A stretch of 47,372 nucleotides of DNA from an uncultured Bacilli bacterium (GCA_947630935.1 CANRJL010000001.1:1-47372), one strand, 5' to 3'. Counted from the stretch's first letter, positions 25,344-40,111 are shown. Notes: generated by a model not told the origin, from the sequence alone. A program made the numbers and translations.

Positions 25344-25370
25344 AAAAAAAAAGTTTGTCTTATGACAAAC
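25344..25370 (-). terminator. Intrinsic terminator of the Pro-rich membrane protein gene
   Basis: GTTTGTC-ATAA-GACAAAC on the minus strand, overlapping the stop codon, followed by T9. Confidence 0.65.
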
Positions 25371-26847
25371 TACACTTATCACCTAAATTTTCATGGAATG
25401 TAGATATTTCTTGGAATGTTTGAGGCGCTTGTTCTAAGTTAAATTCGGCTTTTAAATCTTCAAGCTTCATTTCGGTTTTTAAAGATAATTTATTATCACT
25501 ATCTTTAAAAGTCGCTACTCCTTTATTGTTATCAATTGTGGAATTTTGATTATATTCTTCTTTGGCTTTTAAGTAGTCTTCAGACCCTTTAAATTGATAA
25601 TCTAATATTTTGTTAATTGAAACAATTTCGTTATTAGCAGATATGCCATATTTATAGCTACTTGTTACTGTAGCAGAGGTTGTTGTTTCTTCTTCAGCAT
25701 TGCTTACGCAATCTAGAACCATTACTGGAGCATTTTCAGTAACAATTAATGAAGCATTTACTTTAGTTTCATGATTTAAATCATCACGAATAGTTAATGG
25801 AATTGTATATTCGCCTTCTTTTTTAACTAATTCTTCTAAAGAAATTGTTTCATCCGCTATTATTATTTCACATTTATCTTCTAAAGATGGGTCTTCACAA
25901 CTAAGAACAAAATCTTCTAAAGATACATTAGTATTTGGAGTTGTGAATACTTCTTTTAATTCTACTTCTGGTCCTAGAGTATCATGAACAGTAATATCTT
26001 TGGTTATTGGTTGTTTTAATGATGGGCAAGTTATTGTATATGAATAATTGCCAGTCTCATTGATATTTATATTCGAAACATCTAAGGTACATGAATTAGC
26101 ATCTATTCCAGTAAAATCAGCAAAATCAGTTATTTTTGAGGAAAGTGTTTTTCCTAATTCCCATTCACTTATTTTAGGAGTTACGATTGTTTGAGGAGTT
26201 TTAGTATTAGCTATATTTAAAAAATAATATACACCCATGCCAATGGATAAGATTAAGATAACAACTAAAATAATGATTATAATCTTTTTAGTATTATCTT
26301 TCTTGTGTGGCTCTTGGACAGGCAAAGGGTTAGAATTTTCTGTAGGTGTGGCAATTCCCCCAAAAGTCGGTGGGTTTGTTTCAATTACATTAATATTATT
26401 ATTTACATTTGGTTGTTCAGATGCAATAGGTTGAGTCTTTTCTTCTGGTTTCTTTATTAATGGTGTATCAGCAGTTAAGGTACTTCCGACTAATGGCTCT
26501 GGAGTTGGGGTTGTTACTTCATTTACGACAACTCCCTCTGGTGCAAGATTTAATTCTTCTACTTGTTCATTAACTGGTTGAAGGTTTTCTAAAACACTTG
26601 GCTGGGAAGTTGGTTGTTCAGGTAAAATAGCAGCTTGCGGTGCTGGTTGGGGTGCCATAGGTGGTATAGGAGGCGTGATAGGTGTTGGTGGAATAGGGTT
26701 AATATTTTCGGATAAAGCTTCTACTTGTGGCGCTGGTTCGTTATTAGGTACAGGTGGTGTTTGGGTTGGTTGTAATGGTTCAACTGGTGGAGTTGAACCT
26801 GCATTTGAATTAGTTTCATTATTTAAATTTAAGTCATCAATATTCAT
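25360..26847 (-). CDS. Bitopic membrane protein: Pro-rich N-terminal region, TM, Ig-like extracellular domains
   Basis: Preferred start is ATG 26847 with GAGGGG 8 nt upstream (ORF-track start 26889 is TTG). About 200 aa rich in P/Q/T/N (PPTPITPPIPPMAPQPAPQ), TM KKIIIIILVVILILSIGMGVYYFL, then beta-rich sequence. Confidence 0.65.
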   Translation of the reverse strand: MNIDDLNLNNETNSNAGSTPPVEPLQPTQTPPVPNNEPAPQVEALSENINPIPPTPITPPIPPMAPQPAPQAAILPEQPTSQPSVLENLQPVNEQVEELNLAPEGVVVNEVTTPTPEPLVGSTLTADTPLIKKPEEKTQPIASEQPNVNNNINVIETNPPTFGGIATPTENSNPLPVQEPHKKDNTKKIIIIILVVILILSIGMGVYYFLNIANTKTPQTIVTPKISEWELGKTLSSKITDFADFTGIDANSCTLDVSNININETGNYSYTITCPSLKQPITKDITVHDTLGPEVELKEVFTTPNTNVSLEDFVLSCEDPSLEDKCEIIIADETISLEELVKKEGEYTIPLTIRDDLNHETKVNASLIVTENAPVMVLDCVSNAEEETTTSATVTSSYKYGISANNEIVSINKILDYQFKGSEDYLKAKEEYNQNSTIDNNKGVATFKDSDNKLSLKTEMKLEDLKAEFNLEQAPQTFQEISTFHENLGDKCSLS

Positions 26848-26939
26848 ACTGATTACCCCTCTTCTATTTTCATAATTAATATTATACAATTATTTTTTTA
26901 AAATAGCAACTATCTTTCTTTATGTGTTAAAGCTTAATT

Positions 26940-26962: not shown

Positions 26963-28000
26963 CTATTTAAAAATATTAAATAATTTACCATTTTTACTTT
27001 CAATATTTTGAGAGTCAAATCTATCAAAACCCATTTTTATTAAGAGTTCATCAATTTGTGGATAATTATCTAACTTATCATCTAAATATGGTAAATTAAA
27101 ATAAACCTTGCTACTTGATTCATATTCAAAATCAGTAACATCATTTTTATTTAAAACACTTCGATTTAAAATAATTTTTTTACCTTTTAATTTTTCAAAA
27201 ATTTTTTGGTCTCTTCTAATTAATTTATTTAATTTAATTAAACCTGGTTCAATTAAATAAAGAACGTCATTGCAATAATCTTCTTTGCCTTCTTCGTTTA
27301 AATCAATTAATAAAACATCAGCATTATAATTAGATGATATAAATTTTTGGAGTTCAAAATGATTGGTATTTTTTAAGGTACGGTCATTTAAGTAAATAAA
27401 ATCATTTTTATCTACTTCAACAGCAATTACTTTATATTTTTTTTCTAATTCTTTTTTTAACAAGTAAGTAAGAGTTGTACTTCCAGCATGGTCAGTAACA
27501 TTTTTAAGGCCAATAATACGAAGATGTTTTATTGGTTCTTCTTCTCTTTTTTCTTTATCTTTATTTTTCTTAGAATTAGAATGAGAAGCATGTTCTTCTT
27601 CATCATCAGTTATAAAACCACCTAATTGATGATATTGAGCAACATCTTTATAACTATTAGGGTTATCTATTAAAAAGTTAATAGAATCGATATTTCTGGT
27701 AAAATTATAAATTCCCATTGAAACTAATGCTGATAAATATTTGGGACTATTTACAACTTCAGAATCATCTAAAAGAATAATTACTTTACTCATGTCTAAA
27801 TTAACAGATAATTGTTGCATAGTTGTAATATTTTGATAATCTTTAATTGCTGTAATATCTAATATCATTTTGTTATAAAAGAAATTACTAAATTGAGCAA
27901 TTAATTCTTCGGGTGTAAATTCTCCAGATATACTTTTGATAATATCAATATCAAGATTATTTAGTAATGTTTCATATTTATTTACTACTTTTACATTCAT
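26963..28000 (-). CDS. TadZ/CpaE-like protein: receiver-like N-domain + ParA/MinD-like domain with degenerate Walker A
   Basis: 345 aa with AGGAGG RBS. Acidic/basic linker (DDEEEHASHSNSKKNKDKEKREEE). RIIGLKNVTDHAGSTTLTYLL...KVIAVEVD...DVLLIDL...IILNR follows the MinD/ParA strand pattern but lacks the GKT lysine. Confidence 0.5.
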   Translation of the reverse strand: MNVKVVNKYETLLNNLDIDIIKSISGEFTPEELIAQFSNFFYNKMILDITAIKDYQNITTMQQLSVNLDMSKVIILLDDSEVVNSPKYLSALVSMGIYNFTRNIDSINFLIDNPNSYKDVAQYHQLGGFITDDEEEHASHSNSKKNKDKEKREEEPIKHLRIIGLKNVTDHAGSTTLTYLLKKELEKKYKVIAVEVDKNDFIYLNDRTLKNTNHFELQKFISSNYNADVLLIDLNEEGKEDYCNDVLYLIEPGLIKLNKLIRRDQKIFEKLKGKKIILNRSVLNKNDVTDFEYESSSKVYFNLPYLDDKLDNYPQIDELLIKMGFDRFDSQNIESKNGKLFNIFK

Positions 28001-28012
28001 TTTAGTCCTCCT

Positions 28013-28492
28013 TTATTGCCAAGTTAAATCATCTATTGGATTGGTCATTTCTAATGTTGAGCCTTTAATATCAAAGGTAAGTAAATCACCAATTACAGGC
28101 AATTTGAAATTAAAAAATAGTTTTACTTCATATTTAAATTGATTGGCATTAGCACTACTGGATTGTGATTTTTGCTTTTTAATGCAATATAAATATCTTG
28201 TTTTATCATTAGATTCTACATATTTTAATTCTGGACTATTGAGACTTGATACACCATATTCTCCAGTTTTACAAGTATGAACTGTATTATAACTATTATA
28301 TGTTAGATAATTGTTAATGATATTGATACTTGTTTCTTGCACACCTTCATATTTTTCAATTATAGATAGTATTTCATTTTTTAATTTAAATGATTTACTA
28401 TAATTTAAAGATAATGATAAAAATGATGCAAAAATAAGAATAAAAGCTACAACTAAACCTAATAACCATGTAGACCCGATTGATTCTCTCAT
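28013..28492 (-). CDS. Pseudopilin-like (TadE/TadF-like?) protein
   Basis: 159 aa. N-terminus MRESIGSTWLLGLVVAFILIFASFLSL. The start overlaps the upstream stop (ATGA). Confidence 0.55.
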   Translation of the reverse strand: MRESIGSTWLLGLVVAFILIFASFLSLSLNYSKSFKLKNEILSIIEKYEGVQETSINIINNYLTYNSYNTVHTCKTGEYGVSSLNSPELKYVESNDKTRYLYCIKKQKSQSSSANANQFKYEVKLFFNFKLPVIGDLLTFDIKGSTLEMTNPIDDLTWQ

Positions 28493-29031
28493 GAAACTAC
28501 ATCACCTACCATTGTTTTCGTATCTCCTTTAATTTTAAAGTTAAAAATATTATGAAATATTGGCAAATCTAATTGATAAAAGACAATTACTCGATAGTAT
28601 AATACATTAGGAAGTTCATTCATTACACAATTTCCGCCATTACCACAAATTCTATTTTGAATATTTTTATCACTTTCGATTTTAGCAATGCAAAAAGCAG
28701 GATTTTTATCATCTGATTTGCCATTTCTTGAAAAGCCATGATAAGTAACTTTTTCATCATTAATATATTCATCGGTTGGGCATTCTCCTGTAACACGGTA
28801 TGCACTTTCATTTAAATAATTAGCAATTTCACAAATTTCAGTATTATCGTTTGAATTAACACATGATGTTGCCATCTCAATACCATTATAACTTTGAATA
28901 GTTTGAATTATTTTATCTTTTACATTAAATGCTTTGGACTGATTTATTGTAAGGCACATAAAGCCCGCGAAAAGCAAGACAAAAAATATAACTATTTGAA
29001 ATAGAAAACTGCCACCTATTGCTTCTCTCAT
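28489..29031 (-). CDS. Pseudopilin-like (TadE/TadF-like?) protein, Cys-containing
   Basis: 180 aa. N-terminus MREAIGGSFLFQIVIFFVLLFAGFMCL. Contains 8 Cys. Confidence 0.55.
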   Translation of the reverse strand: MREAIGGSFLFQIVIFFVLLFAGFMCLTINQSKAFNVKDKIIQTIQSYNGIEMATSCVNSNDNTEICEIANYLNESAYRVTGECPTDEYINDEKVTYHGFSRNGKSDDKNPAFCIAKIESDKNIQNRICGNGGNCVMNELPNVLYYRVIVFYQLDLPIFHNIFNFKIKGDTKTMVGDVVS

Positions 29032-29049
29032 CAGGCTACTCCTTTCTTT

Positions 29050-29313
29050 TTATCCTTTCCAAGGGCATTCAAATGTATTTTGGGTACTAGAGCAACTTTT
29101 TTGCTCACCATTTTGCTCAGTAGGCATACAACATTTTACGGTAATACAATTTCCAGAACTACATTTTTCACATACAGCTTGAGAGCATTTAGTATTTTCA
29201 TCCATATTTTGACGAATTAAAGGCCAAATAGTAAAATAGAAAAAGGCTGACAAAGCCCCTATTCCAATAACTATTGCTACTGTAATATTTAATTCGCCTG
29301 TTGCCTCTTTCAT
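29050..29313 (-). CDS. Pilin-like protein 2 (Flp-sized hydrophobic N-terminus + Cys-rich tail)
   Basis: 87 aa with perfect AGGAGG RBS. MKEATGELNITVAIVIGIGALSAFFYFTIWPLIRQ is followed by a 45-aa tail with 8 Cys. Confidence 0.65.
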   Translation of the reverse strand: MKEATGELNITVAIVIGIGALSAFFYFTIWPLIRQNMDENTKCSQAVCEKCSSGNCITVKCCMPTEQNGEQKSCSSTQNTFECPWKG

Positions 29314-29331
29314 TTATTCCTCCTAATATTA

Positions 29332-29598
29332 TTATGGATTTGGGTTTTCTGGTGAGCTTTCATCTTTGTATGTGCAAGAAAAAGTCTCAGATTCTCCAGG
29401 TATTGAACAGCCTGTACAAGTTCTCGTACCTCCTACGCCTTCATCACAATTCGTACATTGAGCAGCAGCACATTTTGTATTGTTTGTAATAGAATTTCTT
29501 ACAGTTGGCCAGACAAATGCATAGAAGAATGCAGCTACAGCAGCTATTGCTACTACAGTGATAACAGTCATATTTAATTCACCTGTTGCTTCTTTCAT
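29332..29598 (-). CDS. Pilin-like protein 1 (paralogue of 29050..29313)
   Basis: 88 aa with perfect AGGAGG RBS. MKEATGELNMTVITVVAIAAVAAFFYAFVWPTVRN is followed by a tail with 6 Cys. Confidence 0.65.
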   Translation of the reverse strand: MKEATGELNMTVITVVAIAAVAAFFYAFVWPTVRNSITNNTKCAAAQCTNCDEGVGGTRTCTGCSIPGESETFSCTYKDESSPENPNP

Positions 29599-29675
29599 AA
29601 TATTCCTCCTAACTCTATATATAATTTTATTATATCTTTTTTTGCTTTTTTTATCAATAAATTTTTATTTGTTTA

Positions 29676-30464
29676 CTATACATTTAACATCATTAATAAG
29701 GCAAAGACTAGAAGAACCATTACTCCTACTCCTGTAGCTACAAGCATTTGCATTGTTTTCTTTTCCATTTTTTCTAATCGCTCTTTATATTTTAATTCCC
29801 GAGCCTTTTGTTGAAGATTAGAAATTGTTCTAGAAAACGCTAATAATTGTTCTTGCTTATGTTCTTGTCTTCCCAAAGATAAACGATATAAAAGACGCAT
29901 CATTCGCATTGAATCACGAACTGGGTAGGTTTTAGCAAAATTTATGTAAGGGTTTATAGTATTATCGCCGGAATTAATTTCGTTAATTAATTCTTGTAAA
30001 CCTTCTTTAAAAATTGGGGGAGCATCTTCAATAGACTTTCCTAAAGCTACAGGAACTGTATAATGTTGAATTAAGATTTCTAAGCTTTTTAAATAGTAAG
30101 GTAACATTGAATCAATATCATGTAAATGACGACGATAGTATTTTTTTAAATTACTATAGTCCATTTTAAAAACTAAATAACCAATTATTATTGAGAATAA
30201 AACGGTGATGTAAGAAATGTTTGAGATAAAGAAACATAATAGAACAACGATAATAATTAAGCCTCTTTTGACTCTTTTATTAAATAGAAAATCTGGGTTT
30301 ACTGAGTCACCATATCTTGCTCTTACATAAAAGTCCCAATCACTTTCTTTTAACTTTTGAAAATAAACTTCATTATCTGATACAAAACGATTGACACTGA
30401 TACGTCCGGTATAATTTAAAGCAAAGAATAAAATCAAGGCTAAAGCTATTATTTCAAAATACAT
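29676..30464 (-). CDS. TadC-like (T2SS F-family) membrane protein
   Basis: 262 aa. N-terminal TM, paired central TMs, a helical cytoplasmic domain and a C-terminal TM. The start overlaps the upstream stop (TAATG). Sits directly after the TadB-like gene. Confidence 0.6.
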   Translation of the reverse strand: MYFEIIALALILFFALNYTGRISVNRFVSDNEVYFQKLKESDWDFYVRARYGDSVNPDFLFNKRVKRGLIIIVVLLCFFISNISYITVLFSIIIGYLVFKMDYSNLKKYYRRHLHDIDSMLPYYLKSLEILIQHYTVPVALGKSIEDAPPIFKEGLQELINEINSGDNTINPYINFAKTYPVRDSMRMMRLLYRLSLGRQEHKQEQLLAFSRTISNLQQKARELKYKERLEKMEKKTMQMLVATGVGVMVLLVFALLMMLNV

Positions 30465-31360
30465 TATTCCACCCCCACATCTTCATAATAAAACCTTTCT
30501 CCTTTATATAAGAAGAAACAGTTTATCCAAATAATGGCATGGAGAATAAATTGAACATACCACATATCTAATAGTTTTAAATATGAAGCAGTGCCCAATA
30601 AAAATTGCATAGCCATAACTAATAAGAATAATGCTAGACCAAAAGTAACAAATCTTTTATGAAAATCAGCTCGGTCTATTTGGTCCCGATAAACTCCTTC
30701 AACTAGTGAGTCGATGTCCATTGATAAATTTTCTAATGCTTCACCAGAGTCTTTAGCGCCTTCTTTAGTTATTTGTAAAAATAATTGATTCATATTTTTA
30801 ACCATATAATAAGGATATTTTTTATTAAAGAAATCAATTGATTCATCGATAGTACCATTTTGATAAGACATATTTATCATGGTTTTAACATCTTCTAAAA
30901 CAGGGTTTTCTAAAATGCCAGAATCTCTTACTCCTTCAAGAGATTTAACAAAACTTTGCGTTGTTGTAAATTCCATAATGACATTGGTTGTATATGTCTG
31001 AATTTGTTCAAAAATAAATTCGGAATAAGCTTTTTGGCAGCGAAGATAAGCTAAAAAAGGAATAAATAAAACTGCTATAACTGCATATATAATAGCAACA
31101 ATTATATTGTAAAAATATAAATAAGATATAACTCCGGCAAAACCTGCAAATAAAATAACTTGGGTTATATATTGCCGAGGAGTATATTCTTGACCTAATT
31201 CTTTTACTTTTTCTCTTACTTTGACAAAACTATAATTGGAATATTTATTATAAGCATTGTTAATGCTTGTTGCAAAAAACTTATAAACATTTTCCCCATT
31301 ATTCAGATAATAGGATACAGCAAAAATGGCCAAAGCTAATAATAATATAAGTTCAATCAT
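30464..31360 (-). CDS. TadB-like (T2SS F-family) membrane protein
   Basis: 298 aa. The topology (N-terminal TM, two central TMs, soluble helical domain, two C-terminal TMs) and the position after the ATPase fit TadB/TadC. Confidence 0.6.
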   Translation of the reverse strand: MIELILLLALAIFAVSYYLNNGENVYKFFATSINNAYNKYSNYSFVKVREKVKELGQEYTPRQYITQVILFAGFAGVISYLYFYNIIVAIIYAVIAVLFIPFLAYLRCQKAYSEFIFEQIQTYTTNVIMEFTTTQSFVKSLEGVRDSGILENPVLEDVKTMINMSYQNGTIDESIDFFNKKYPYYMVKNMNQLFLQITKEGAKDSGEALENLSMDIDSLVEGVYRDQIDRADFHKRFVTFGLALFLLVMAMQFLLGTASYLKLLDMWYVQFILHAIIWINCFFLYKGERFYYEDVGVE

Positions 31361-31375
31361 TTTTATTCCTTCTTT

Positions 31376-32479
31376 CTATAGAGTTTCTATAGCGCTTTTT
31401 TGAGGTGATTCATTTACTTTATCTTCACCTTGATAAATATCATCTGGCAAAGTTATACCCGAAATGGCTAAATAATCTTTTAAATGTTTAGTTGGGTTGT
31501 TCATGGTTATTTCGCCTGTAAGAGTTTTTTGAAAGATGGTATTAACTTGGGCTTTATTATTTTCATCAACATAAAATTCACATATTTCCATAATTTCTCT
31601 TTGAAATCTGCCTAATTCTTTACTCATGTATCCTTTAACATATATTCCTATTTGAACATAACGATGGATAGTTGATAGAAACTGGTCAACATCAATATTA
31701 CTTTCTATAAGGGCAAACATTCGCAATGGAATTAAACTGGCTTTGTCAGAGTGAATAGTTGATAAAATATGATGCCCTGATGATATACTATTTCTAACAG
31801 CCATGACAGCTTCAGCGCTTCGCACTTCGGAAAGTAAAATCCAGATTGGGTTTTGCCGCATACAGGTTACTAAAACATCGGTATAACTGGCAATATTATT
31901 TGTTTTCATAGCAATTATATCACGATGAGGAAAAATGCGGTCTAGATGAAGCTCTAAGGTATCTTCAATGGTAATTATTTTTTCGTTTTCTTTAGTATGT
32001 GCGGCTAAATATTTGACAAGCTCAGTTTTTCCTGAACCTGTTTCCCCACTTACGATAATATTAGCATGACCTTCGACACATTTTAATAAAAAATCAAGTA
32101 GACTTGCCGAAACATATTTTTCGTTTAATAATTTTTCACGATTTAATCTTATTTTGGATGGTGTTTTACGAATTTGGCACGCAATACCATTCGTAGCAAT
32201 TGAATCGTGGATAAAGTTTAAACGAAGTTCTGCACTTTCAGCATCCAAAAAAGGATGAGCCATATTAAATGTTTTTCCCATAACATTAGCACATTGAAAT
32301 GCTAATTTTTCTAAAAGTGCATTATTTATTTCTGGCCTTTCTACTTGATAAACTCCTTTTGTAAGGGATTTTAACCAAACCTGTCCATTATTGTCATATG
32401 AGATATCAGTAATATCTTCGTCTCTTAGAAATTCTTCAATAGGTCCAAAATCTAATTGTGAAAATATTGCATCATTCAT
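31376..32479 (-). CDS. tadA: TadA/CpaF-family secretion ATPase (T2SSE/VirB11 superfamily)
   Basis: 367 aa. ITDISYDNNGQVWL, RLNFIH...IRK, Walker A SGETGSGKTE, ITIEDTLEL, Walker B-like IWILLSEVRSAEA and His box SGHHILSTIHS. Confidence 0.85.
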   Translation of the reverse strand: MNDAIFSQLDFGPIEEFLRDEDITDISYDNNGQVWLKSLTKGVYQVERPEINNALLEKLAFQCANVMGKTFNMAHPFLDAESAELRLNFIHDSIATNGIACQIRKTPSKIRLNREKLLNEKYVSASLLDFLLKCVEGHANIIVSGETGSGKTELVKYLAAHTKENEKIITIEDTLELHLDRIFPHRDIIAMKTNNIASYTDVLVTCMRQNPIWILLSEVRSAEAVMAVRNSISSGHHILSTIHSDKASLIPLRMFALIESNIDVDQFLSTIHRYVQIGIYVKGYMSKELGRFQREIMEICEFYVDENNKAQVNTIFQKTLTGEITMNNPTKHLKDYLAISGITLPDDIYQGEDKVNESPQKSAIETL

Positions 32480-32511
32480 TATGGCTCATCCCTTTCTATT
32501 CTTTTTATTCT

Positions 32512-33366
32512 TTAATTATTTGAATTGTTATTATTATTGTTGTTATTATTGTTATTGTTATTTGTATTACTATTTGTTCCTGTTGAAATTTGTTCATCAG
32601 GGATAACAGCAGCTTTAGATAGAATAAATTCTCTTACATAAGCACTGGCAACTTCTGTTTCGCCAGGATTTGCCGTATAATTTTTATTTCTTGGAACAGG
32701 AATTATATCTATTCCCGTATATTGAGCTTTACGTAATAAAGAATACATATCATCTGGTACAGCAAATAGTAATGATGCTGGGGTTCTACTTTCAGTTGAT
32801 GTTTCAAATACTGATTGTCCAGAACCATCACGAACATCTAAAACCCGAATACTCCGGATTAAATTAGTGTATATTAATTTATTATAATTGTCATTACCTT
32901 TAACCCATAAATCAATATAGTTTCCTGGGAAAATAGAATTTCCGTAAGTTGTATGAATATCTACTCCTAATTCAAATAGTGTATAACCATCTGGAATATC
33001 AGCAATTACATTATCAGGTTGACTTTCAGGAGAAACAATTGCTGATGTATAGAAAAAACTATTTTGAGGAATGGTTGTTCCATACATTACTTCTTTACCT
33101 ATTAATTGATTAGCATTTCTTATCATATTATTACTTTTACTTAATACAGCATTAGATACTTCCATATATCCTATATCATCAGCCGTAATAACGTGTCTTG
33201 ATGATAAAGCGTTTTTAGCATAAGGAATAGTTGTAGGATTGGTTGCTGTATTAACTCGCCAAGTATATCCTATATATAATACTAAGATTCCAGCTATGAC
33301 ACATATAATGGTTACAGTATTTTTGTTACTCAAAAATTTTTTAATTCTTGTTATTAAATTTCCCAT
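32512..33366 (-). CDS. CpaB/RcpC-like (SAF-domain) pilus assembly protein with a poly-Asn tail
   Basis: 284 aa. N-terminal TM (VTIICVIAGILVLYIGY), then a SAF-like segment (RHVITADDIGYMEVS...LIGKEVMYGTTIPQNSFF). The C-terminus is NSNTNNNNNNNNNNNNNSNN. Confidence 0.55.
   Translation of the reverse strand: MGNLITRIKKFLSNKNTVTIICVIAGILVLYIGYTWRVNTATNPTTIPYAKNALSSRHVITADDIGYMEVSNAVLSKSNNMIRNANQLIGKEVMYGTTIPQNSFFYTSAIVSPESQPDNVIADIPDGYTLFELGVDIHTTYGNSIFPGNYIDLWVKGNDNYNKLIYTNLIRSIRVLDVRDGSGQSVFETSTESRTPASLLFAVPDDMYSLLRKAQYTGIDIIPVPRNKNYTANPGETEVASAYVREFILSKAAVIPDEQISTGTNSNTNNNNNNNNNNNNNSNN
32515..32574 (-). repeat. (AAT/AAC)n low-complexity tract encoding poly-Asn
   Basis: Read directly: ATT/GTT triplets on the plus strand immediately above the stop codon. 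Confidence 0.9.
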
Positions 33367-33384
33367 TTTTATTCCTCCTTAATT

Positions 33385-33786
33385 CTAATTTCCTAATTCT
33401 AAAATAGAATCTACACGATTAACTATATCAAAAGATTCGGAATTAGAACTTATTTGATAAGTGTTGCTTTTAGTAGTAACTTGGACACCAGCTTTTGGTG
33501 GTGATTCATATATTTCGTAAAAGTCAATTTGATAAGTATTTAGATTAGCACTTTCAGCAAATCTTCTTAAAAAATTTTCAACATATTTTTCACGATTAAT
33601 ACGTAATTCACCACTTTCTCTGTAGTAGCCATAGTCGACAGCATCGACCATAGCTGCTTCAGATACTTCTTTAATTAAATAATAATCTTGGGTACTGGTT
33701 GTAGATACATTGGAAACTAACATCATGATAACTATGATAAATACGCCTAATGCAATTAACCAATATCCCCAATAGCTTTCTTTCAT
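33385..33786 (-). CDS. Pseudopilin-like small protein
   Basis: 133 aa. N-terminus MKESYWGYWLIALGVFIIVIMMLVS shares the M[KR]E[AS] start and single N-terminal helix with the four other subunit-like genes. Confidence 0.5.
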   Translation of the reverse strand: MKESYWGYWLIALGVFIIVIMMLVSNVSTTSTQDYYLIKEVSEAAMVDAVDYGYYRESGELRINREKYVENFLRRFAESANLNTYQIDFYEIYESPPKAGVQVTTKSNTYQISSNSESFDIVNRVDSILELGN

Positions 33787-33796
33787 CTATGCCTCC

Positions 33797-36700
33797 CTAT
33801 TTCCATGAAGGACCGACGCCAGTAACTCTATCTAAGCAAACGCCGCCTTGACAGTAATTTGTATTAGTCCATAAAACAAAATCTTCATTACGTTTATTTT
33901 CGGTGAAATAGTCATTTTCTTCACCAATATCTAAGAATCTTGATTTACAATTAACGCTGTAATCAACACCATTAATTGTATGATTTTCACAATAGATAGC
34001 ATCTTCACCACTTGCACTTAAACTACTAATAGTTGGAATTGCTGTGTTAGAATAACTGCCTGCTGCTTTGTTATATTTTCGCAAATTTATCATATTTTGT
34101 CTAGTTAAAGTATATGAATATTCAGATTGTGTATAAGCATATTCACCAGTTTCTTCAATTTCATTTCTGGTAACTTCAGCCTTTTTACTTGCATCAGTCG
34201 TATTTCCACTCGCTTGAGTTTGACCACTATTTTGACCTTCTGTTGAAGTTTGGCCTCCTGATTGACTAGTTGTTTTACCGCCATTTGATAAATTCCAGTT
34301 ATATCCAGTTTGGCGACAATTTTCAGTATTGCCATCTTTGCATTCATTTGGGAATAAATTGCCAGTTGTAACAGAACGGAAGACAGCTTTTGACGTTAAT
34401 TCATCATTATCTTCAATTTCATCTGATCCATCAACTATACATGTAGGACAATCTTTTTTAGAATCATTTGTAATATCACAAGAACCACCTTCACATGTTA
34501 CATGGCATGTTGGACAGTTGTTAATGTAATGACAAACATAACCACCATCAATACTTGTTGGAGTTGTAGTACCACATTTATTTTCTTCTGGTAAATTACT
34601 ATATGCTTCGATAACGCTTTTTACCTCTTCTGATTTGCCATCTTCGGCAGCATCATTAATTAATCTTCCTAACTCGCCATTGGTATTATTTTGACCAATA
34701 TTTTTAAAGTAGAATTTAAATTGGAACACTCCTTTATGTTGTCTTAATGATACTGGAAGTGAACTATCAGGAAGTCTTGTCCATAAGCAATCTTTATAGA
34801 CACCATTAGAATCTTGAATACATTGTTCAGCATTTACTTTAATTGCTCCATATTGAGTATAAGTAGAAAATTGGCCTCGTGGTACATAAACACCGGTGTT
34901 AGTTACTGTTTTTTGAACTCTTTGAACTGTATATCTTGTTTTATTTTCTAACTTACAAGTAGCATCATTACAACTTACTATTTGTTCAGTTGTTGTTAAA
35001 TTTTCTTTCATCTGTTCATCATTATAACTTTGACCAGTACATTTATATTCATCATTTACGTCCGTTCCACAATAAACATTTTTGGAATCAGTAGTTTTAC
35101 TTTTTTCGCTAAATGCTGGTAAATTGTCTTCTTTTTTAGTAACTATATCATTGTAGGCATTATCAACAGTTTTTTCATCATTATTATCTTCACCATAAGT
35201 ATATTTAATTATAGGATCAAATTTCATATCATTTGTCCATTCTGTACATTGCTTGTAGCTATTTTGAACATTTTCTAAAGCTTGTTTAGCATTATTATAT
35301 GTCTTTTCAGCATCATCTTTTTTAGCTGTAAATGTTGATTTTACACCATTAAATGTTGATGTTACTTTAGCTTCAGTCAATTTATTCTCTTCATCTGGTT
35401 TATAAATATACCATACATATTGAGCTTGGAATTCATCGCTAGCTCCTTCAGCAACAGTTTCTGGAGCACTTTCTTCGGCTTTTTTATATTTAATATATTC
35501 ATTGAAAGCATTTATTAAATTTTGTTGAGCAGTTTTAACATCTTTCAAATATTTAGTTTCATCAATACCTTTAGATGGATCAGTTGCTCCACTAATATAG
35601 CAATTTCGGGTGCCTTTTATAGTAGTTTCTAATTCGAAGTAACCACCACTTTGCGAATATTTAGCTGTTGGAACTGTAAAATTATATTCTTCATCACACC
35701 AAACTTTGCAATAAGGATTACCTTTAAAAATGCTTGTTGCTTCAAATGAATTATTCATTTGATCTGTATGGTCAATTACACATTTTTTTACTTGATTTGC
35801 ACTAGAATTACATTCTGTTGGTGTTCGATTTATGTCGCTTATTGTTCCCGAAACAGTAGATTCTGCATCAAAATCATTACATGTCGATGGAAGAGTTACA
35901 TTGGCAAAACAGTTAGTACAATATGTCTTGTAATCTTCACATGAAGAGCTATCGCCCTCTTTACATTCTTTTTCATATTTGCCACATTCACATTCTGTTT
36001 TATATTGTTCTTCACTAGCACATTCTTCACCATTAGAGCAAATATAATGTTTAACATCATCAATTTCTTCAATACTGCATTCTTTTGTACATTCTGCTAA
36101 ATATGTTGCTTCATTATCGTCTTCTTCACTTTCAGGATCTGGTCCATAGAATGTTGTTACACCATTTTTAGTAACTTTTTGGCAAGTTTTTTTACATTGA
36201 TTTAAATATGTTTTTTTAGTTGTAACTTTACCTTCTTTATCATAATATGTGCCATTATCTTCCCGACAGCCACATTGTTTAGTAAATTCTTCAGCATTTG
36301 CTAATTTGCTACCATCATTGCCATAATAAACACCATCAACAATTTCGCATTTATGATTTTCATCTTCTTGGCAAAGATCTGGAGAACAATGATAATTTTT
36401 TTCAAAAGTAGAAGCATTTTTATCATCTAAATACATTTTTTCAGTTGTTGTTTTGCCTGTAGGTTCATCATTTACTTTTTCTACTCTAGTTACTTCGTAA
36501 TAGTATTTACCTTGATTGTCTTTTTTACATTCACATGTGTCATTATCCCATACTAAATCTAAATCTGATAAATAGATATCATCTGAACCATAATTACGAA
36601 GAAGTAATTGATTTTGTAAGCTATAATTACGGTCACCATTGGAATTTATAGGGCCATAATAGGCAACGTTTGCCTGAGCTGAATGCTTATCACTCCAAGC

Positions 36701-37645
36701 TGTTTTTAAAGTTATTCCATATGCTTTGTTGTTTTTTTGAGCTTCTTTAAACTTGCCATCTTCCGTATTAACATGAATTATAAATTCAGCTTTTTTGCCA
36801 TTTTCACTTACTGTTATTAGTTTTTTATCATTTTCTTTTCTGATATTACATTTATAACCATATTCACAACTTACTGTAAAATCATCCCAATATACTTTTT
36901 CAATATTGCTAGCATTTTTAATTTCAATTGTAAGGATTTCACTATGGTCATTTTCATGTTCTACTTTTTTGATTTTTGTTTCCCATTTAGCATCCCAAAT
37001 GATTCCACTATCAACTAATGAATTATAGATTTCTTTAGCACTTTTACCTTTATTAGCATCACTATTTACAGAATTTCCAGCCTCAATAGCTTTTTGATAT
37101 ATTTCTTTTAAAAATTTAGTATCATTTTGCCAACTAGGCCAATAATTTGAATTTGTAAATAAGGTATCTTTTCGATAAGGTGCAACAGCATTTTGATCAC
37201 CACCAGTATCAAGTTTACCATAATATCCTTCAATTAATCTAAATAATGCTGTGCCTAATTTAACGCTTGTATTTGAACCTTTGCCTGCGCCAATTCCGGC
37301 GTCAATTAATTCTTGATAGCCAACCGTTAAAGCGACATCTAAGTCCTGTTTATTAGATTCCTGTGGATGAAGCGTTCTAATACATTTACTATTACTACCA
37401 GAATTATGACTTTTTCCAGGAGCCATGCAAAATAATTTACCGACTATGCCACCATTTACATAAGCATTATAATTATGAATTTCATGTTTACCTGCTGCAT
37501 AAAAGGCACCACCAGTAAGTGATACTCTAACTAACTCATATGGGCAAGTATAAACATTTAAATCAATTGTTGTTGCTTTGACTGGCAAAACTTGAAAAAA
37601 TGTTAAGATGCATACAAATGCAATTGTTTCTAATATCTTTTTCAT
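33797..37645 (-). CDS. Very large secreted Cys-rich protein (candidate adhesin or filament-associated protein)
   Basis: 1282 aa with AGGGGGA RBS. Sec signal MKKILETIAFVCILTFFQVLPVKA. Many Cys throughout (count not tallied), in C-x-C, CxxC and CPTC contexts. Residues ~371-556 carry YY-x-x-x-G modules like those in the sortase substrates. No cell-wall sorting signal or C-terminal TM. Confidence 0.8.
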   Translation of the reverse strand: MKKILETIAFVCILTFFQVLPVKATTIDLNVYTCPYELVRVSLTGGAFYAAGKHEIHNYNAYVNGGIVGKLFCMAPGKSHNSGSNSKCIRTLHPQESNKQDLDVALTVGYQELIDAGIGAGKGSNTSVKLGTALFRLIEGYYGKLDTGGDQNAVAPYRKDTLFTNSNYWPSWQNDTKFLKEIYQKAIEAGNSVNSDANKGKSAKEIYNSLVDSGIIWDAKWETKIKKVEHENDHSEILTIEIKNASNIEKVYWDDFTVSCEYGYKCNIRKENDKKLITVSENGKKAEFIIHVNTEDGKFKEAQKNNKAYGITLKTAWSDKHSAQANVAYYGPINSNGDRNYSLQNQLLLRNYGSDDIYLSDLDLVWDNDTCECKKDNQGKYYYEVTRVEKVNDEPTGKTTTEKMYLDDKNASTFEKNYHCSPDLCQEDENHKCEIVDGVYYGNDGSKLANAEEFTKQCGCREDNGTYYDKEGKVTTKKTYLNQCKKTCQKVTKNGVTTFYGPDPESEEDDNEATYLAECTKECSIEEIDDVKHYICSNGEECASEEQYKTECECGKYEKECKEGDSSSCEDYKTYCTNCFANVTLPSTCNDFDAESTVSGTISDINRTPTECNSSANQVKKCVIDHTDQMNNSFEATSIFKGNPYCKVWCDEEYNFTVPTAKYSQSGGYFELETTIKGTRNCYISGATDPSKGIDETKYLKDVKTAQQNLINAFNEYIKYKKAEESAPETVAEGASDEFQAQYVWYIYKPDEENKLTEAKVTSTFNGVKSTFTAKKDDAEKTYNNAKQALENVQNSYKQCTEWTNDMKFDPIIKYTYGEDNNDEKTVDNAYNDIVTKKEDNLPAFSEKSKTTDSKNVYCGTDVNDEYKCTGQSYNDEQMKENLTTTEQIVSCNDATCKLENKTRYTVQRVQKTVTNTGVYVPRGQFSTYTQYGAIKVNAEQCIQDSNGVYKDCLWTRLPDSSLPVSLRQHKGVFQFKFYFKNIGQNNTNGELGRLINDAAEDGKSEEVKSVIEAYSNLPEENKCGTTTPTSIDGGYVCHYINNCPTCHVTCEGGSCDITNDSKKDCPTCIVDGSDEIEDNDELTSKAVFRSVTTGNLFPNECKDGNTENCRQTGYNWNLSNGGKTTSQSGGQTSTEGQNSGQTQASGNTTDASKKAEVTRNEIEETGEYAYTQSEYSYTLTRQNMINLRKYNKAAGSYSNTAIPTISSLSASGEDAIYCENHTINGVDYSVNCKSRFLDIGEENDYFTENKRNEDFVLWTNTNYCQGGVCLDRVTGVGPSWK

Positions 37646-37661
37646 TTCTTATTCCCCCTTA

Positions 37662-38378
37662 CTAAATCTTCCTCTTTTTATTTCTTTTTATTTGAACAAT
37701 GATAGCAATCATCATTATTACTATAAGAACGGTGCCACCGATATACCAGTAAATTCTATTTTTAGATGCTAATTCTTCAGCTCCTTTAAAATAATTGTTA
37801 TTGCTATTTACATATTCATTTTGAATTTTTTCTTCATCTACTTCAATGTTTGTTGTAACATATTTTTCACAATAATATGCATCTTTATTTTCGCAAAGGG
37901 CTTGGTCAGCTAATTCATTATACATTGGAGTCAATACTTTTATTTCTCTTAATTCTTCATTAGAACATCCGGAAACATCGGAAAAAATTTTGATAGTATA
38001 AGTTCTTATCTTTTGAGTATCAGGAACTCTTAAAGAAAAACTACCATTAACTAAATCTCTAGCGTGATACTCTTCATCAATATGTTCTTCTTCATTTGTA
38101 ATTCGAAAATAAATTTGATCAGTTATATTGTATATTTTAACATTAAAATGTTCAGCAAAGTAATAACCACTATTCAAGGTATTAGCTATTTCATCAGATA
38201 CTTCTGGATGGGGATTACCTTCATAATCTTCTTTTACTCGTTCCATTTCATAAGTGCCTACGACATTAGCCGCAGCTGTACTGATTTCATTTTGTGTTTT
38301 ATAATCACATTCAGCATGTACTGTTTGGCTTAACAACGCACACATAGCAATTAAAAAAATTAACCCTTTTTTTCGCAT
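37662..38378 (-). CDS. Type I membrane protein, first gene of the Tad-like block
   Basis: Preferred start is ATG 38378 (MRKKGLIFLIAMCALLSQTVHA signal); ORF-track start 38438 is TTG. C-terminal TM YWYIGGTVLIVIMMIAIIV plus a KRNKKRK tail. Confidence 0.65.
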   Translation of the reverse strand: MRKKGLIFLIAMCALLSQTVHAECDYKTQNEISTAAANVVGTYEMERVKEDYEGNPHPEVSDEIANTLNSGYYFAEHFNVKIYNITDQIYFRITNEEEHIDEEYHARDLVNGSFSLRVPDTQKIRTYTIKIFSDVSGCSNEELREIKVLTPMYNELADQALCENKDAYYCEKYVTTNIEVDEEKIQNEYVNSNNNYFKGAEELASKNRIYWYIGGTVLIVIMMIAIIVQIKRNKKRKI

Positions 38379-38532
38379 AATTATTCCATCCAATCTAAAA
38401 TATATAAGTATTGTATCAAAATATCTTTTGTTTTTCAATCATTTTATACTTTTTCTATTTTATTAATTTCTACTATTCAAAAATGCTTCTTTATGATATA
38501 TTTTTAATTAGAAAAATAGATTGGAGTTATAT

Positions 38533-39249
38533 ATGAAAAGTATACATTTTAAAGAATTATTAAAGGCTTTTGGAATTATTTTATTGTATTTAGTTTTGGT
38601 TCCAACTTTTGTAACAATTATTTTTAAAATTTTTATTAAAGATATTAATAATCTTTCTATGGCTATTTTAGTAAATCTGATATCTTATTTTATAGATATT
38701 GTTATTATTTATCTTATTTATCATAAAAGTTTGAAAGAAGAATGGAAACGATTCATTAAAAATTTTAAAGCTTATGCCAAAATTGCTTTGCAAAATTGGG
38801 CTAAAGGTTTTCTAGCTATGTTTTTATTTAATTTTTTAATTATTTTAGTTTATCATAATATGGCGGCTAATGAAGAATCTAATCGTCAATTACTAGAACA
38901 ATTACCTATTTTTTCACTTATTTCTATGATCTTTTTAGGTCCTTTCTTTGAAGAAATTACTTTTCGAAAAGGTTTTAAAAAAGCTTTTGATAATCCCAAG
39001 ACATTTTTAATTGTTACTTCATTATTATTTGGTGGCGCTCATTTAATTACTAGTTTTGATTTGCATTCTTTTGATGCTTTTGTAAAAAGTCTTCCTCAAT
39101 TATTATACATTTTTTCATATGGCTCTTTAGGTTATTTTTTTGGAAAAGCTTATTATGAAACAGATTGTATTTTTACAAGTATTTTAGCTCACGTTTTGCA
39201 TAATGGTTTGACAGTTTTTATTTTATTATTAAGTGCTAGTCTTTTATAG
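38533..39249 (+). CDS. CPBP-family intramembrane glutamic protease (CAAX/Abi type)
   Basis: Preferred start is ATG 38533 (ORF-track start 38521 is TTG). Motifs EEITFRKG, FGGAHL and HVLHN lie in a polytopic membrane protein. Confidence 0.8.
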   Translation: MKSIHFKELLKAFGIILLYLVLVPTFVTIIFKIFIKDINNLSMAILVNLISYFIDIVIIYLIYHKSLKEEWKRFIKNFKAYAKIALQNWAKGFLAMFLFNFLIILVYHNMAANEESNRQLLEQLPIFSLISMIFLGPFFEEITFRKGFKKAFDNPKTFLIVTSLLFGGAHLITSFDLHSFDAFVKSLPQLLYIFSYGSLGYFFGKAYYETDCIFTSILAHVLHNGLTVFILLLSASLL

Positions 39250-39259
39250 GTGAAAGTTT

Positions 39260-40111
39260 ATGGAAAATATAGTTAGTGATAAAAAAAAATTAGGGCTTTT
39301 ACCTAAAATTCTTATTATTCTTTTTTTATTAATTCTTCTTATTTACTGTTGGATGCATTTTGGTGAGCCAAAAATTATAACGGTGAAAGATTTTATTATT
39401 CAAGATGAAAAAATTCCTTTATCTTTTGATGGGTTTACAATTGTTCATTTTTCAGATATCCATTTTGGAAGAACTACTAATGAAAAAGAATTAAATAAAG
39501 TTGTCGATAAAATTAATGAAATTGATGCAGATATTGTTTTGTTTTCAGGTGATTTATTTGATCCTTATATTACTTTGTCTGATGAAAATATTTCTTATTT
39601 ACAAGATACTTTTAAAAAGATAAATGCCAAAATGAAAAAATATGCTGTAGTTGGCGATTATGATACGGACCATTTAGATGTTTATGAACAAATTTTAAAA
39701 TCTAGTAATTTTGAATTATTAAATGGTCATAATCAAAGTATTTATTATAAAGGAAATGTTCCAATTTATATAAGTGGTATTGCTTCTATTTCAAAAATTA
39801 CACCTGATTATAGCAACGCTTTTAGTAAAGATGGTGATTATTTACAATTATTTTTAAGTCATGAACCAGGAGTTATTAATGATATCAAAAATAAAGCAGA
39901 TTATGTTTTTAGTGGTCATACCCTAGGTGGTCAAATACGAATTCCTTTTGTGGGCGGAATTAAAAAAATGCCTAACTCTTCTATTTATGAAATTGGAAAA
40001 TATAATGTGGATAAGGCAACTTTATTTGTAAATAATGGGATTGGTACCCAAGATATTTCATTACGGCTGTTTAATTTGCCAACTATTTATTGTTATCGTT
40101 TTGTTAAGTAA
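39260..40111 (+). CDS. Membrane-anchored metallophosphoesterase (calcineurin-like)
   Basis: 283 aa with AGGTGA RBS. N-terminal TM, then HFSDIHFG, SGDLFD, GDYD and SGHTLGGQIRIP motifs. Confidence 0.85.
   Translation: MENIVSDKKKLGLLPKILIILFLLILLIYCWMHFGEPKIITVKDFIIQDEKIPLSFDGFTIVHFSDIHFGRTTNEKELNKVVDKINEIDADIVLFSGDLFDPYITLSDENISYLQDTFKKINAKMKKYAVVGDYDTDHLDVYEQILKSSNFELLNGHNQSIYYKGNVPIYISGIASISKITPDYSNAFSKDGDYLQLFLSHEPGVINDIKNKADYVFSGHTLGGQIRIPFVGGIKKMPNSSIYEIGKYNVDKATLFVNNGIGTQDISLRLFNLPTIYCYRFVK

Follow-up and report, generated by a model that had tools for sequence, protein, structure and literature searches.

Five subunit genes with a common N-terminal tag

The DNA described here is a contig of 47,372 nucleotides (the window) from an uncultured Bacilli bacterium (GCA_947630935.1, CANRJL010000001.1:1-47372), belonging to an assembly of 935 kb that is 77.6% complete. 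A minus-strand operon running from 38438 to 26963 encloses the region 28013-33786, in which five genes for subunit-like proteins share an N-terminal tag. By product, the operon is composed of a secreted protein of 258 amino acids, an adhesin of 1282 amino acids, a DUF5411 protein, a CpaB-like protein, an ATPase, two polytopic membrane proteins (298 and 262 amino acids), two tandem pilin-like proteins (88 and 87), two minor-subunit-like proteins (180 and 159) and finally a cytoplasmic protein of 345 amino acids.

The tagged proteins are the DUF5411 protein (33385-33786; 133 amino acids; PF17424, E 4.7e-56), which begins with MKESYWGYW, the major-pilin-like protein of 88 amino acids (29332-29598; MKEATGELNM), its paralogue of 87 amino acids (29050-29313; MKEATGELNI), and the minor-subunit-like proteins of 180 (28489-29031; MREAIGGSF) and 159 amino acids (28013-28492; MRESIGSTW), all encoded on the minus strand. 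Profile alignment with hhalign pairs the two pilin-like proteins (99.9% probability) and the two minor-subunit-like proteins (100%) as paralogues. The N-termini are as a first-pass annotation of this DNA had given them, and the hydrophobic helix of about 20 residues that it placed after each tag is seen directly in the sequences. All five genes start with ATG and have a Shine-Dalgarno sequence 6-9 nucleotides upstream, with no usable start further upstream.

The tag has a length of six residues, or seven in the DUF5411 protein, and is net-neutral owing to a conserved Glu. The same annotation had reported that the canonical Glu at position +5 after the Gly is absent from all five proteins, and this holds: the residues found there are T, T, F, L and A. 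The Gln at +5 that it assigned to one of them exists only if the 180-residue protein is counted from its second Gly. When all possible starts of open reading frames (ORFs) of at least 40 amino acids in the assembly were searched for the pattern ^M[KR]E[AST].{1,2}G, seven occurrences were found, corresponding to the five window genes, a frame-shifted DUF5411 paralogue on another contig (C9) and one unrelated soluble protein; that the five genes do not share the motif by chance is confirmed. A literature search on the motif itself found no paper.

Conservation of the tag in relatives

The tag is conserved in the 79 related loci that were collected together with 10-kb flanks. In these loci the pilins start with MKEATGELN with minimal variation, the family of the 180-residue protein with M[KR]E[AS]IGGTW, that of the 159-residue protein with MR[EQ][AS]IG[GST]TW, and the DUF5411 proteins with M[KR]E[SAT][YFLI]WGYW. 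The small pilins form a family of 2136 clusters at 90% identity, and the MKEATGELN start is present in 114 of the best 120 of these. Among the homologues of these pilins is one with the label [Clostridium] spiroforme. In the same 120 clusters residues 1-31 are nearly invariant, as opposed to a hypervariable tail which keeps six conserved Cys, and this combination of near-invariant helix and Cys-rich variable tail is the classic pattern of a major pilin. Among relatives of the 87-residue pilin the entropy is 0-0.64 bits at positions 1-9, and the positional entropy of the tag is lower than that of the membrane helix. At the level of DNA, synonymous codons replace each other freely at codons 3-8 in 96 pilin genes (Ala4, for example, is encoded by GCA in 39, GCC in 21, GCG in 20 and GCT in 16 genes) while the residues are constant, so that selection acts on the peptide. 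In the window, the pilin tails (29050-29598, minus strand) have their six Cys partly in a paired CxxC arrangement that is kept across relatives with otherwise hypervariable tails, and they could be disulfide-stapled or metal-binding knobs.

For the minor subunits a profile search of 1.8 billion representatives returned a family of at least 1500 clusters at 50% identity, the best 150 of which were analysed. All but two of these representatives align from their own residue 1, which leaves no room for a longer leader among them. At position 2, 148 of the 150 have K or R, and at position 3, 138 have an acidic residue or Gln (E in 110, Q in 20, D in 8). Representatives with G at position 6 number 118, as against 21 with S, 7 with A and 3 with N, and in 16 (11%) Gly is absent from both position 6 and position 7.

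The operon products and related machines

The operon head encodes the two Sec-type secreted proteins, that is the 258-residue protein and the Cys-rich adhesin of 1282 residues (33797-38438, minus strand), which are found upstream of the DUF5411 gene in 72/79 and 61/79 loci respectively. The gene following that for DUF5411 encodes a protein of 284 amino acids (32512-33366, minus strand) which resembles CpaB/RcpC; the assignment is weak since both family scores are under their cut-offs (PF16976, 26.4 bits against 28.8; TIGR03177, 32 bits against 71). The ATPase of 367 amino acids (31376-32479, minus strand; PF00437, the T2SSE domain, 87 bits) belongs to the CpaF/FlaI/VirB11 group of secretion ATPases, and with its best solved relatives scoring 66.9 (CpaF), 65.8 (FlaI) and 63.7 bits (VirB11) it appears equally distant from all three. 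The two polytopic membrane proteins occupy the TadB position (298 amino acids; 30464-31360, minus strand) and the TadC position (262 amino acids; 29676-30464, minus strand). For the 298-residue protein a platform role would follow from position and topology only, as there were no Pfam, NCBIfam or PDB profile matches and hhalign against the TadB and TadC of the same genome gave a probability of at most 1%. PF00482 (T2SSF) had no match among 34 members of the family, nor in the 262-residue protein of the window. For both polytopic proteins Pfam, NCBIfam, a search of PDB profiles and hhalign were without a T2SSF signal, and neither resembles TadB or TadC detectably, the copies of the same genome included. 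The last gene of the operon encodes the protein of 345 amino acids (26963-28000, minus strand) in the position of TadZ; it is conserved as the final gene in 45 loci, has no family match in Pfam or NCBIfam, and hhalign against the TadZ of the genome gave 1% probability.

The gene order, with a CpaB-like protein, an ATPase of the CpaF/FlaI/VirB11 group, two polytopic proteins, tandem tiny pilin-like proteins, two larger genes for minor subunits and, last, a cytoplasmic protein, is like that of Tad/Flp loci, and so is the hydrophobic helix of the subunits following a short hydrophilic stretch ending in Gly. In distinction to Tad/Flp, the window proteins have no match to the Flp, TadE or T2SSF families and lack the G/XXXXEY motif and Glu5, the CpaB match is under threshold, the protein in the TadZ position is unrecognisable, a TadV gene is present in none of the 79 loci (0/79), and the leader is of six residues, fixed and net-neutral where those of Tad/Flp are long and variable. 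A match to Pilin_N was not significant (E 0.09).

A second group of related machines is found on plasmids. Among plasmids, a tblastn search brings up as best relatives of the ATPase, at about 31% identity, gene 37 ('VirB11') in the pLS20 family, together with counterparts from pZB18 of E. faecium and from plasmids of Paraclostridium and Peribacillus. Each of these genes stands downstream of a large adhesin gene, which in the pLS20 family encodes the Tie adhesin. Comparison by hhalign relates the DUF5411 protein to p36 (94% probability), the 262-residue protein to p39 (96%, E 1.4e-9) and the 159-residue protein to p40 (89%), while for the 298-residue protein and p38 the probability is 5% over 209 columns; a tblastn search of DUF5411 against plasmids gave no match. 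These comparisons show the window machine to be homologous to pLS20 genes 36, 37, 39 and 40, in the same order. Genes 36 and 38-41 of pLS20 have been listed as of unknown function (PMC8557374), and Gram-positive conjugation has been described as pilus-less (PMC11730352). The plasmid modules share with the window the large adhesin gene upstream and small helix proteins of 47-60 amino acids, which are in tandem on 3/4 plasmids examined; they differ in having no proteins in the CpaB and TadZ positions and in adjoining VirD4/VirB4-type genes. The proteins p36, p40 and the positional counterpart p41 have conserved N-termini of their own without a conserved Gly, examples being MQEQSIMEIVKW and MLDQNTDRSWW. 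The p40 start is M-Q-E-x-S-I-M-E-x-V-K-W, and that of the 47-60-residue plasmid proteins is MLDQN[AT]DR..W.

Structure prediction with AlphaFold2 (AF2) gave a model of mean pLDDT 88.4 for the 180-residue protein, with a helix at 5-47 and a beta-sheet head, and one of mean pLDDT 76 for the DUF5411 protein, with a helix at 3-48 and an alpha/beta head. Both models follow the general plan of type IV pilins, a helix of about 45 residues with a small head. Foldseek found no significant match for either in the PDB, the T. thermophilus pilin PilA4 (6xxd) being ranked 7th with E 0.23. The five proteins could also be static bitopic parts of the machine which do not polymerise and which use their conserved cytoplasmic N-terminus for binding a partner, in the way that PilN binds PilM by its N-terminus, and the weakness of this best match to a solved pilin, the missing T2SSF signature of the polytopic proteins and the occurrence of DUF5411 outside the operon, fused to long extensions, are in keeping with such a role. 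We nevertheless consider it very unlikely, given that the tandem genes of the 87- and 88-residue proteins, with their invariant helix and hypervariable Cys-rich tail, look like those of classic major pilins and that one tag is common to five different proteins.

The second DUF5411 gene of the genome lies outside the window (contig C9, 95-1676) after the gene for a 440-residue secreted protein. Its first 32 residues are those of the window copy, followed by a frame shift into an ORF of 502 amino acids with the DUF5411 core and a long extension; the cause may be a frame shift, a fault of the assembly or variation between strains. Relatives, too, have DUF5411 in fused form, in proteins of 200-580 amino acids. 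Directly after the operon, a bitopic protein of 509 amino acids (25360-26889, minus strand) has a weak match, under the cut-off, to the CD1107-like mobile-element domain (PF14283, E 1.5e-4), which hints at a past link to a conjugative element. No genes of a type IV secretion system were found in the window, of which only part was scanned for them, and Pfam gave no match for the suspected conjugation genes downstream of the operon in two related genomes (G006 and G013).

Prepilin peptidases and the readings of the tag

The absence of an A24-type prepilin peptidase gene from the window (contig C1), as noted in the first-pass annotation, is correct, since a whole-genome search with PF01478 at E<=10 had no match there. 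It is no peculiarity of this locus. The same search identified one A24 gene on another contig (C70), an ORF of 222 amino acids scoring 35.6-39 bits (cut-off 26.5), in which both catalytic Asp motifs are visible, GGGDMKL and, upstream of it, ISDLKYMIILD, and which is intact. It has no A24_N_bact domain, which its orthologue in the relative G006 has, and its neighbours are an EF-P-like ORF and a small zinc-ribbon ORF resembling ribosomal protein L33, as we read them. None of the 79 related loci (0/79) carries an A24 homologue within 10 kb of the DUF5411 gene, so that the lack of a peptidase at the locus is the rule. A census of 120 genomes of the same family, each at least 90% complete, found an A24 gene in 119, nearly always in single copy, and DUF5411 in 103; the 17 genomes without DUF5411 have all kept A24. 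In this lineage the peptidase belongs to the core set of housekeeping genes and is always available, and because it is encoded on another contig the missing peptidase of the window is ordinary and explained. In other type IV filaments the same arrangement is known: all MSH loci are without a peptidase of their own, tadV may be a loner, and loci borrowing a distant peptidase have been described (PMC6668835). For a Tad-like system, a peptidase in the locus or as a loner is thus present in the form of the C70 gene, outside the locus.

Other type IV systems are found alongside the housekeeping peptidase in this family. A PilB-type ATPase (about 400 bits) is present in nearly all of the 120 genomes, often adjoining the A24 gene, and CpaF of a canonical Tad set like that on contig C57 of the window genome in 75/120. 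In G006 the A24 gene, encoding both A24_N_bact and Peptidase_A24 domains, stands beside pilins starting with MKKNG/FTVVE and MKYLSSKG/FMLVE (the slash follows the Gly of the leader). The window genome has pilin-like proteins of this kind too, which carry Glu at +5 after a leader of 5-6 residues (for example MNKRG/YALKE and MNNNRG/WGLNE). Its canonical Tad set (C57:2602-6424; TadZ, CpaF, TadB and TadC of 260, 450, 333 and 232 amino acids) has no adjoining pilin gene and runs straight into a gene which we take from its N-terminal sequence to be hrcA. A PilB-type ATPase is absent from the assembly, likely because this is only 77.6% complete. A further prepilin-like start, MKAKLG/FSLKE, belongs to a 380-residue protein (C99:1378-2520) which after the helix reads, we presume, as a PDZ-containing C-terminal processing protease; the start could serve an enzyme as an anchor of class III type, or the resemblance could be coincidental.

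For comparison, canonical pilins encoded next to A24 and PilB genes, 31 in all, were taken from 21 family genomes. They have 26 different leaders, in which K and N abound and acidic residues almost never occur; most are of 4-9 residues and one is of 15, and all are followed by G/[FIVM]xxxE. The six residues of the tag, which had been regarded as very short for a leader, are therefore within the normal range of the family and equal the leader of P. aeruginosa PilA (PMC4471445). What is genuinely odd about the tag is its fixed length, its near-invariance, its conserved acidic residue and the existence of homologous plasmid proteins without the Gly, features that the first-pass annotation did not remark upon. 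Type IVa and Com pilins have in common with the window proteins a similar leader length (5-8 residues), the Gly before the helix and a peptidase which may be encoded apart and shared. They differ in that the canonical substrates of the family are of the type M(K/N)nG/F(T/M)xxE, whereas the window tag, which does not vary in length, carries a conserved acid, lacks Glu5 and is followed by Glu or Gly/Ser at +1. The substrates of the archaeal peptidases PibD, FlaK and EppA are similar in that Glu5 is often absent, leaders are short and the peptidases can select by the +1 residue (EppA needs Gln at +1); they are dissimilar in that position -2 or -3 is basic and -1 is taken by Gly, Ala or Ser, and the only peptidase of the window genome is of bacterial type.

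The first-pass annotation had offered three alternatives, namely a leader removed by a peptidase encoded elsewhere, a different protease, or assembly of uncleaved subunits. This list is a fair one, although the premises of an absent A24 peptidase and a very short leader from which it set out needed correction. The first alternative would make the tag a true, unusually conserved class III signal, cut after Gly6 (Gly7 in DUF5411) by the housekeeping PilD/ComC-type peptidase of C70. We regard this as a serious possibility, only slightly less probable than the retention of the tag preferred below. With a single A24 gene in the genome and one in 119 of the 120 family genomes, adjoining in relatives a PilB-type ATPase and canonical pilins as in G006, an enzyme is at hand. 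Peptidases are shared between systems, as for the MSH loci (PMC6668835), and in the pilins the Gly and the Glu next to it are invariant and the AF2 models are pilin-like. The leader is as long as in PilA, and cleavage does not require Glu5 (PMC4471445). Mature major pilins would in this case start with Glu, whose side chain might neutralise the new N-terminal amine as Glu5 does; the minor subunits have no such residue. The fixed length, near-invariance and conserved acid, on the other hand, are unlike the canonical leaders of the family, Glu at +1 is without precedent in substrates from bacteria, and among the archaeal peptidases some discriminate according to the residue at +1 (PMC4371748). 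The Gly at -1 is reported to be absolutely critical for prepilin peptidases (PMC4471445), and it is missing at positions 6 and 7 from the 11% of minor-subunit representatives mentioned above and from the plasmid homologues.

The presence of A24 in a genome says nothing on this particular system, since the genomes that lack DUF5411, 17 in number, retain it and other type IV systems are present in every genome. The co-occurrence of A24 and DUF5411 was uninformative as a test, with A24 in 119/120, a PilB-type ATPase in nearly all and DUF5411 in 103/120 genomes. Among the family genomes no clean one was found that has this machine as its only type IV-like system; G449 has a single ATPase match on the scale of the window type, in an assembly of 100 contigs that is 94% complete. 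One apparent natural host without A24 was G013, from an order in which 0/3 genomes have A24 or another T2SSE ATPase, with an intact locus of MKEASGELN type. The locus lies on a contig of 27 kb (C76; L092/L120) in a genome that is 99% complete, and the contig carries a second, divergent asparaginyl-tRNA synthetase, which shares only 58% identity with the copy that the genome has of its own and with the one in the sister genome; the contig is therefore probably mis-binned and the evidence was dropped. It is a caution for arguments from presence or absence in these genomes.

A different membrane protease could also remove the tag, and the best candidate is a CPBP/Rce1-like intramembrane glutamic protease of 242 amino acids encoded divergently next to the operon head (38521-39249, plus strand; PF02517, E 1.6e-13). 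It is the only PF02517 gene in the assembly, abuts the operon and has its catalytic motifs EExxxR, FxxxH and HxxxN intact. A CPBP gene is located upstream of the operon in 38/55 related loci with enough flank, usually within 700 bp, and on E. faecium pZB18 three genes upstream of the adhesin and ATPase module. Against this, 17 loci with enough flank have no such gene upstream, nor have the G006 locus and the pLS20-type plasmids examined; the gene always travels with a metallophosphoesterase gene as a unit of its own, and synteny inside one bacterial family is weak evidence. We know of no CPBP enzyme that processes pilins, and removal of the tag by this protease appears improbable. The protease and metallophosphoesterase genes form a conserved divergent pair at the operon head (38521-40111, plus strand).

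We tentatively prefer to see in the tag a recognition signal which is retained, a reading to which we would give a little under an even chance. The five proteins would be client subunits of a DUF5411-type machine akin to Tad pili and VirB11-type ATPases, two of them major-pilin-like, two minor-subunit paralogues and one DUF5411, each with a small outer head or tail and, before it, a long N-terminal helix whose first half probably spans the membrane. The sequence M-[KR]-[EQ]-[AST]-x-(x)-G would be a recognition tag of fixed length on the helix's cytoplasmic side, as opposed to a disposable prepilin leader, and might be read by a cytoplasmic part of the machine, candidates being the ATPase, the two polytopic proteins with their cytoplasmic domains, and the protein that occupies the TadZ position. 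This part would then lift the subunits from the membrane into a putative fibre or surface complex carrying the adhesin encoded upstream. The tag would stay on the subunit, or at least need no A24 cleavage. A retained, machine-read tag fits better with the fixed length, the invariance, the acidic residue, the loss of Gly in a tenth of the minor-subunit clusters, the Gly-less homologues and the missing Glu5. The broader statement that the tag is not an A24 leader, the subunits of this machine and of its pLS20-type relatives being assembled with the N-terminus intact or trimmed by a non-A24 protease, falls only just short of even probability in our judgement.

Several observations weigh against retention. 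To our knowledge subunit processing by an A24 peptidase is common to all type IV filament systems that have been characterised, and an intact A24 is available in essentially every genome of the family. Apart from the missing Glu at +5, the tag has the make-up of a class III signal, with a hydrophilic stretch of at least six residues ending in Gly and about 20 hydrophobic residues after it. The major pilins have an invariant Gly and, directly after it, an invariant Glu, which could replace Glu5 once the protein is cleaved. In Anaerorhabdus-type loci the tags are of 8-9 residues, basic and different in length and sequence, yet end in Gly before the helix, as disposable leaders would; a search from the DUF5411 protein of this type returned only itself. 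A class III leader ends in an invariant Gly, with about 21 residues after it that are mainly hydrophobic. Class III leaders are described as hydrophilic and of 6-26 residues, and Glu5 as dispensable for cleavage (PMC4471445).

The noncanonical, invariant tag on pilin-shaped subunits of a widespread and unstudied machine is real, whichever way it is read. The pilin-like family is very large, occurs in uncultured gut Bacilli of people and animals and is without a Pfam or literature description; only the operon of DUF5411 and CpaF has been flagged so far, in gut Clostridia, where it was predicted to be a secretion system (PMC9523054). The machine is homologous to genes of the pLS20 conjugation system, which is described as pilus-less (PMC8557374, PMC11730352). 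A tag cut by the housekeeping peptidase would represent a new class of leader missed by current pilin finders, and a retained one would break the rule that the subunits of type IV filaments must be processed. Should intact assembly or trimming by a non-A24 protease be true, this would be the first type-IV-filament-like system independent of a prepilin peptidase, and would point to a pilus-like organelle in Gram-positive conjugation modules thought to be pilus-less. Cleavage by the housekeeping peptidase and retention alike would show how adhesins without an anchor are displayed, and how Gram-positive mating pairs may form.

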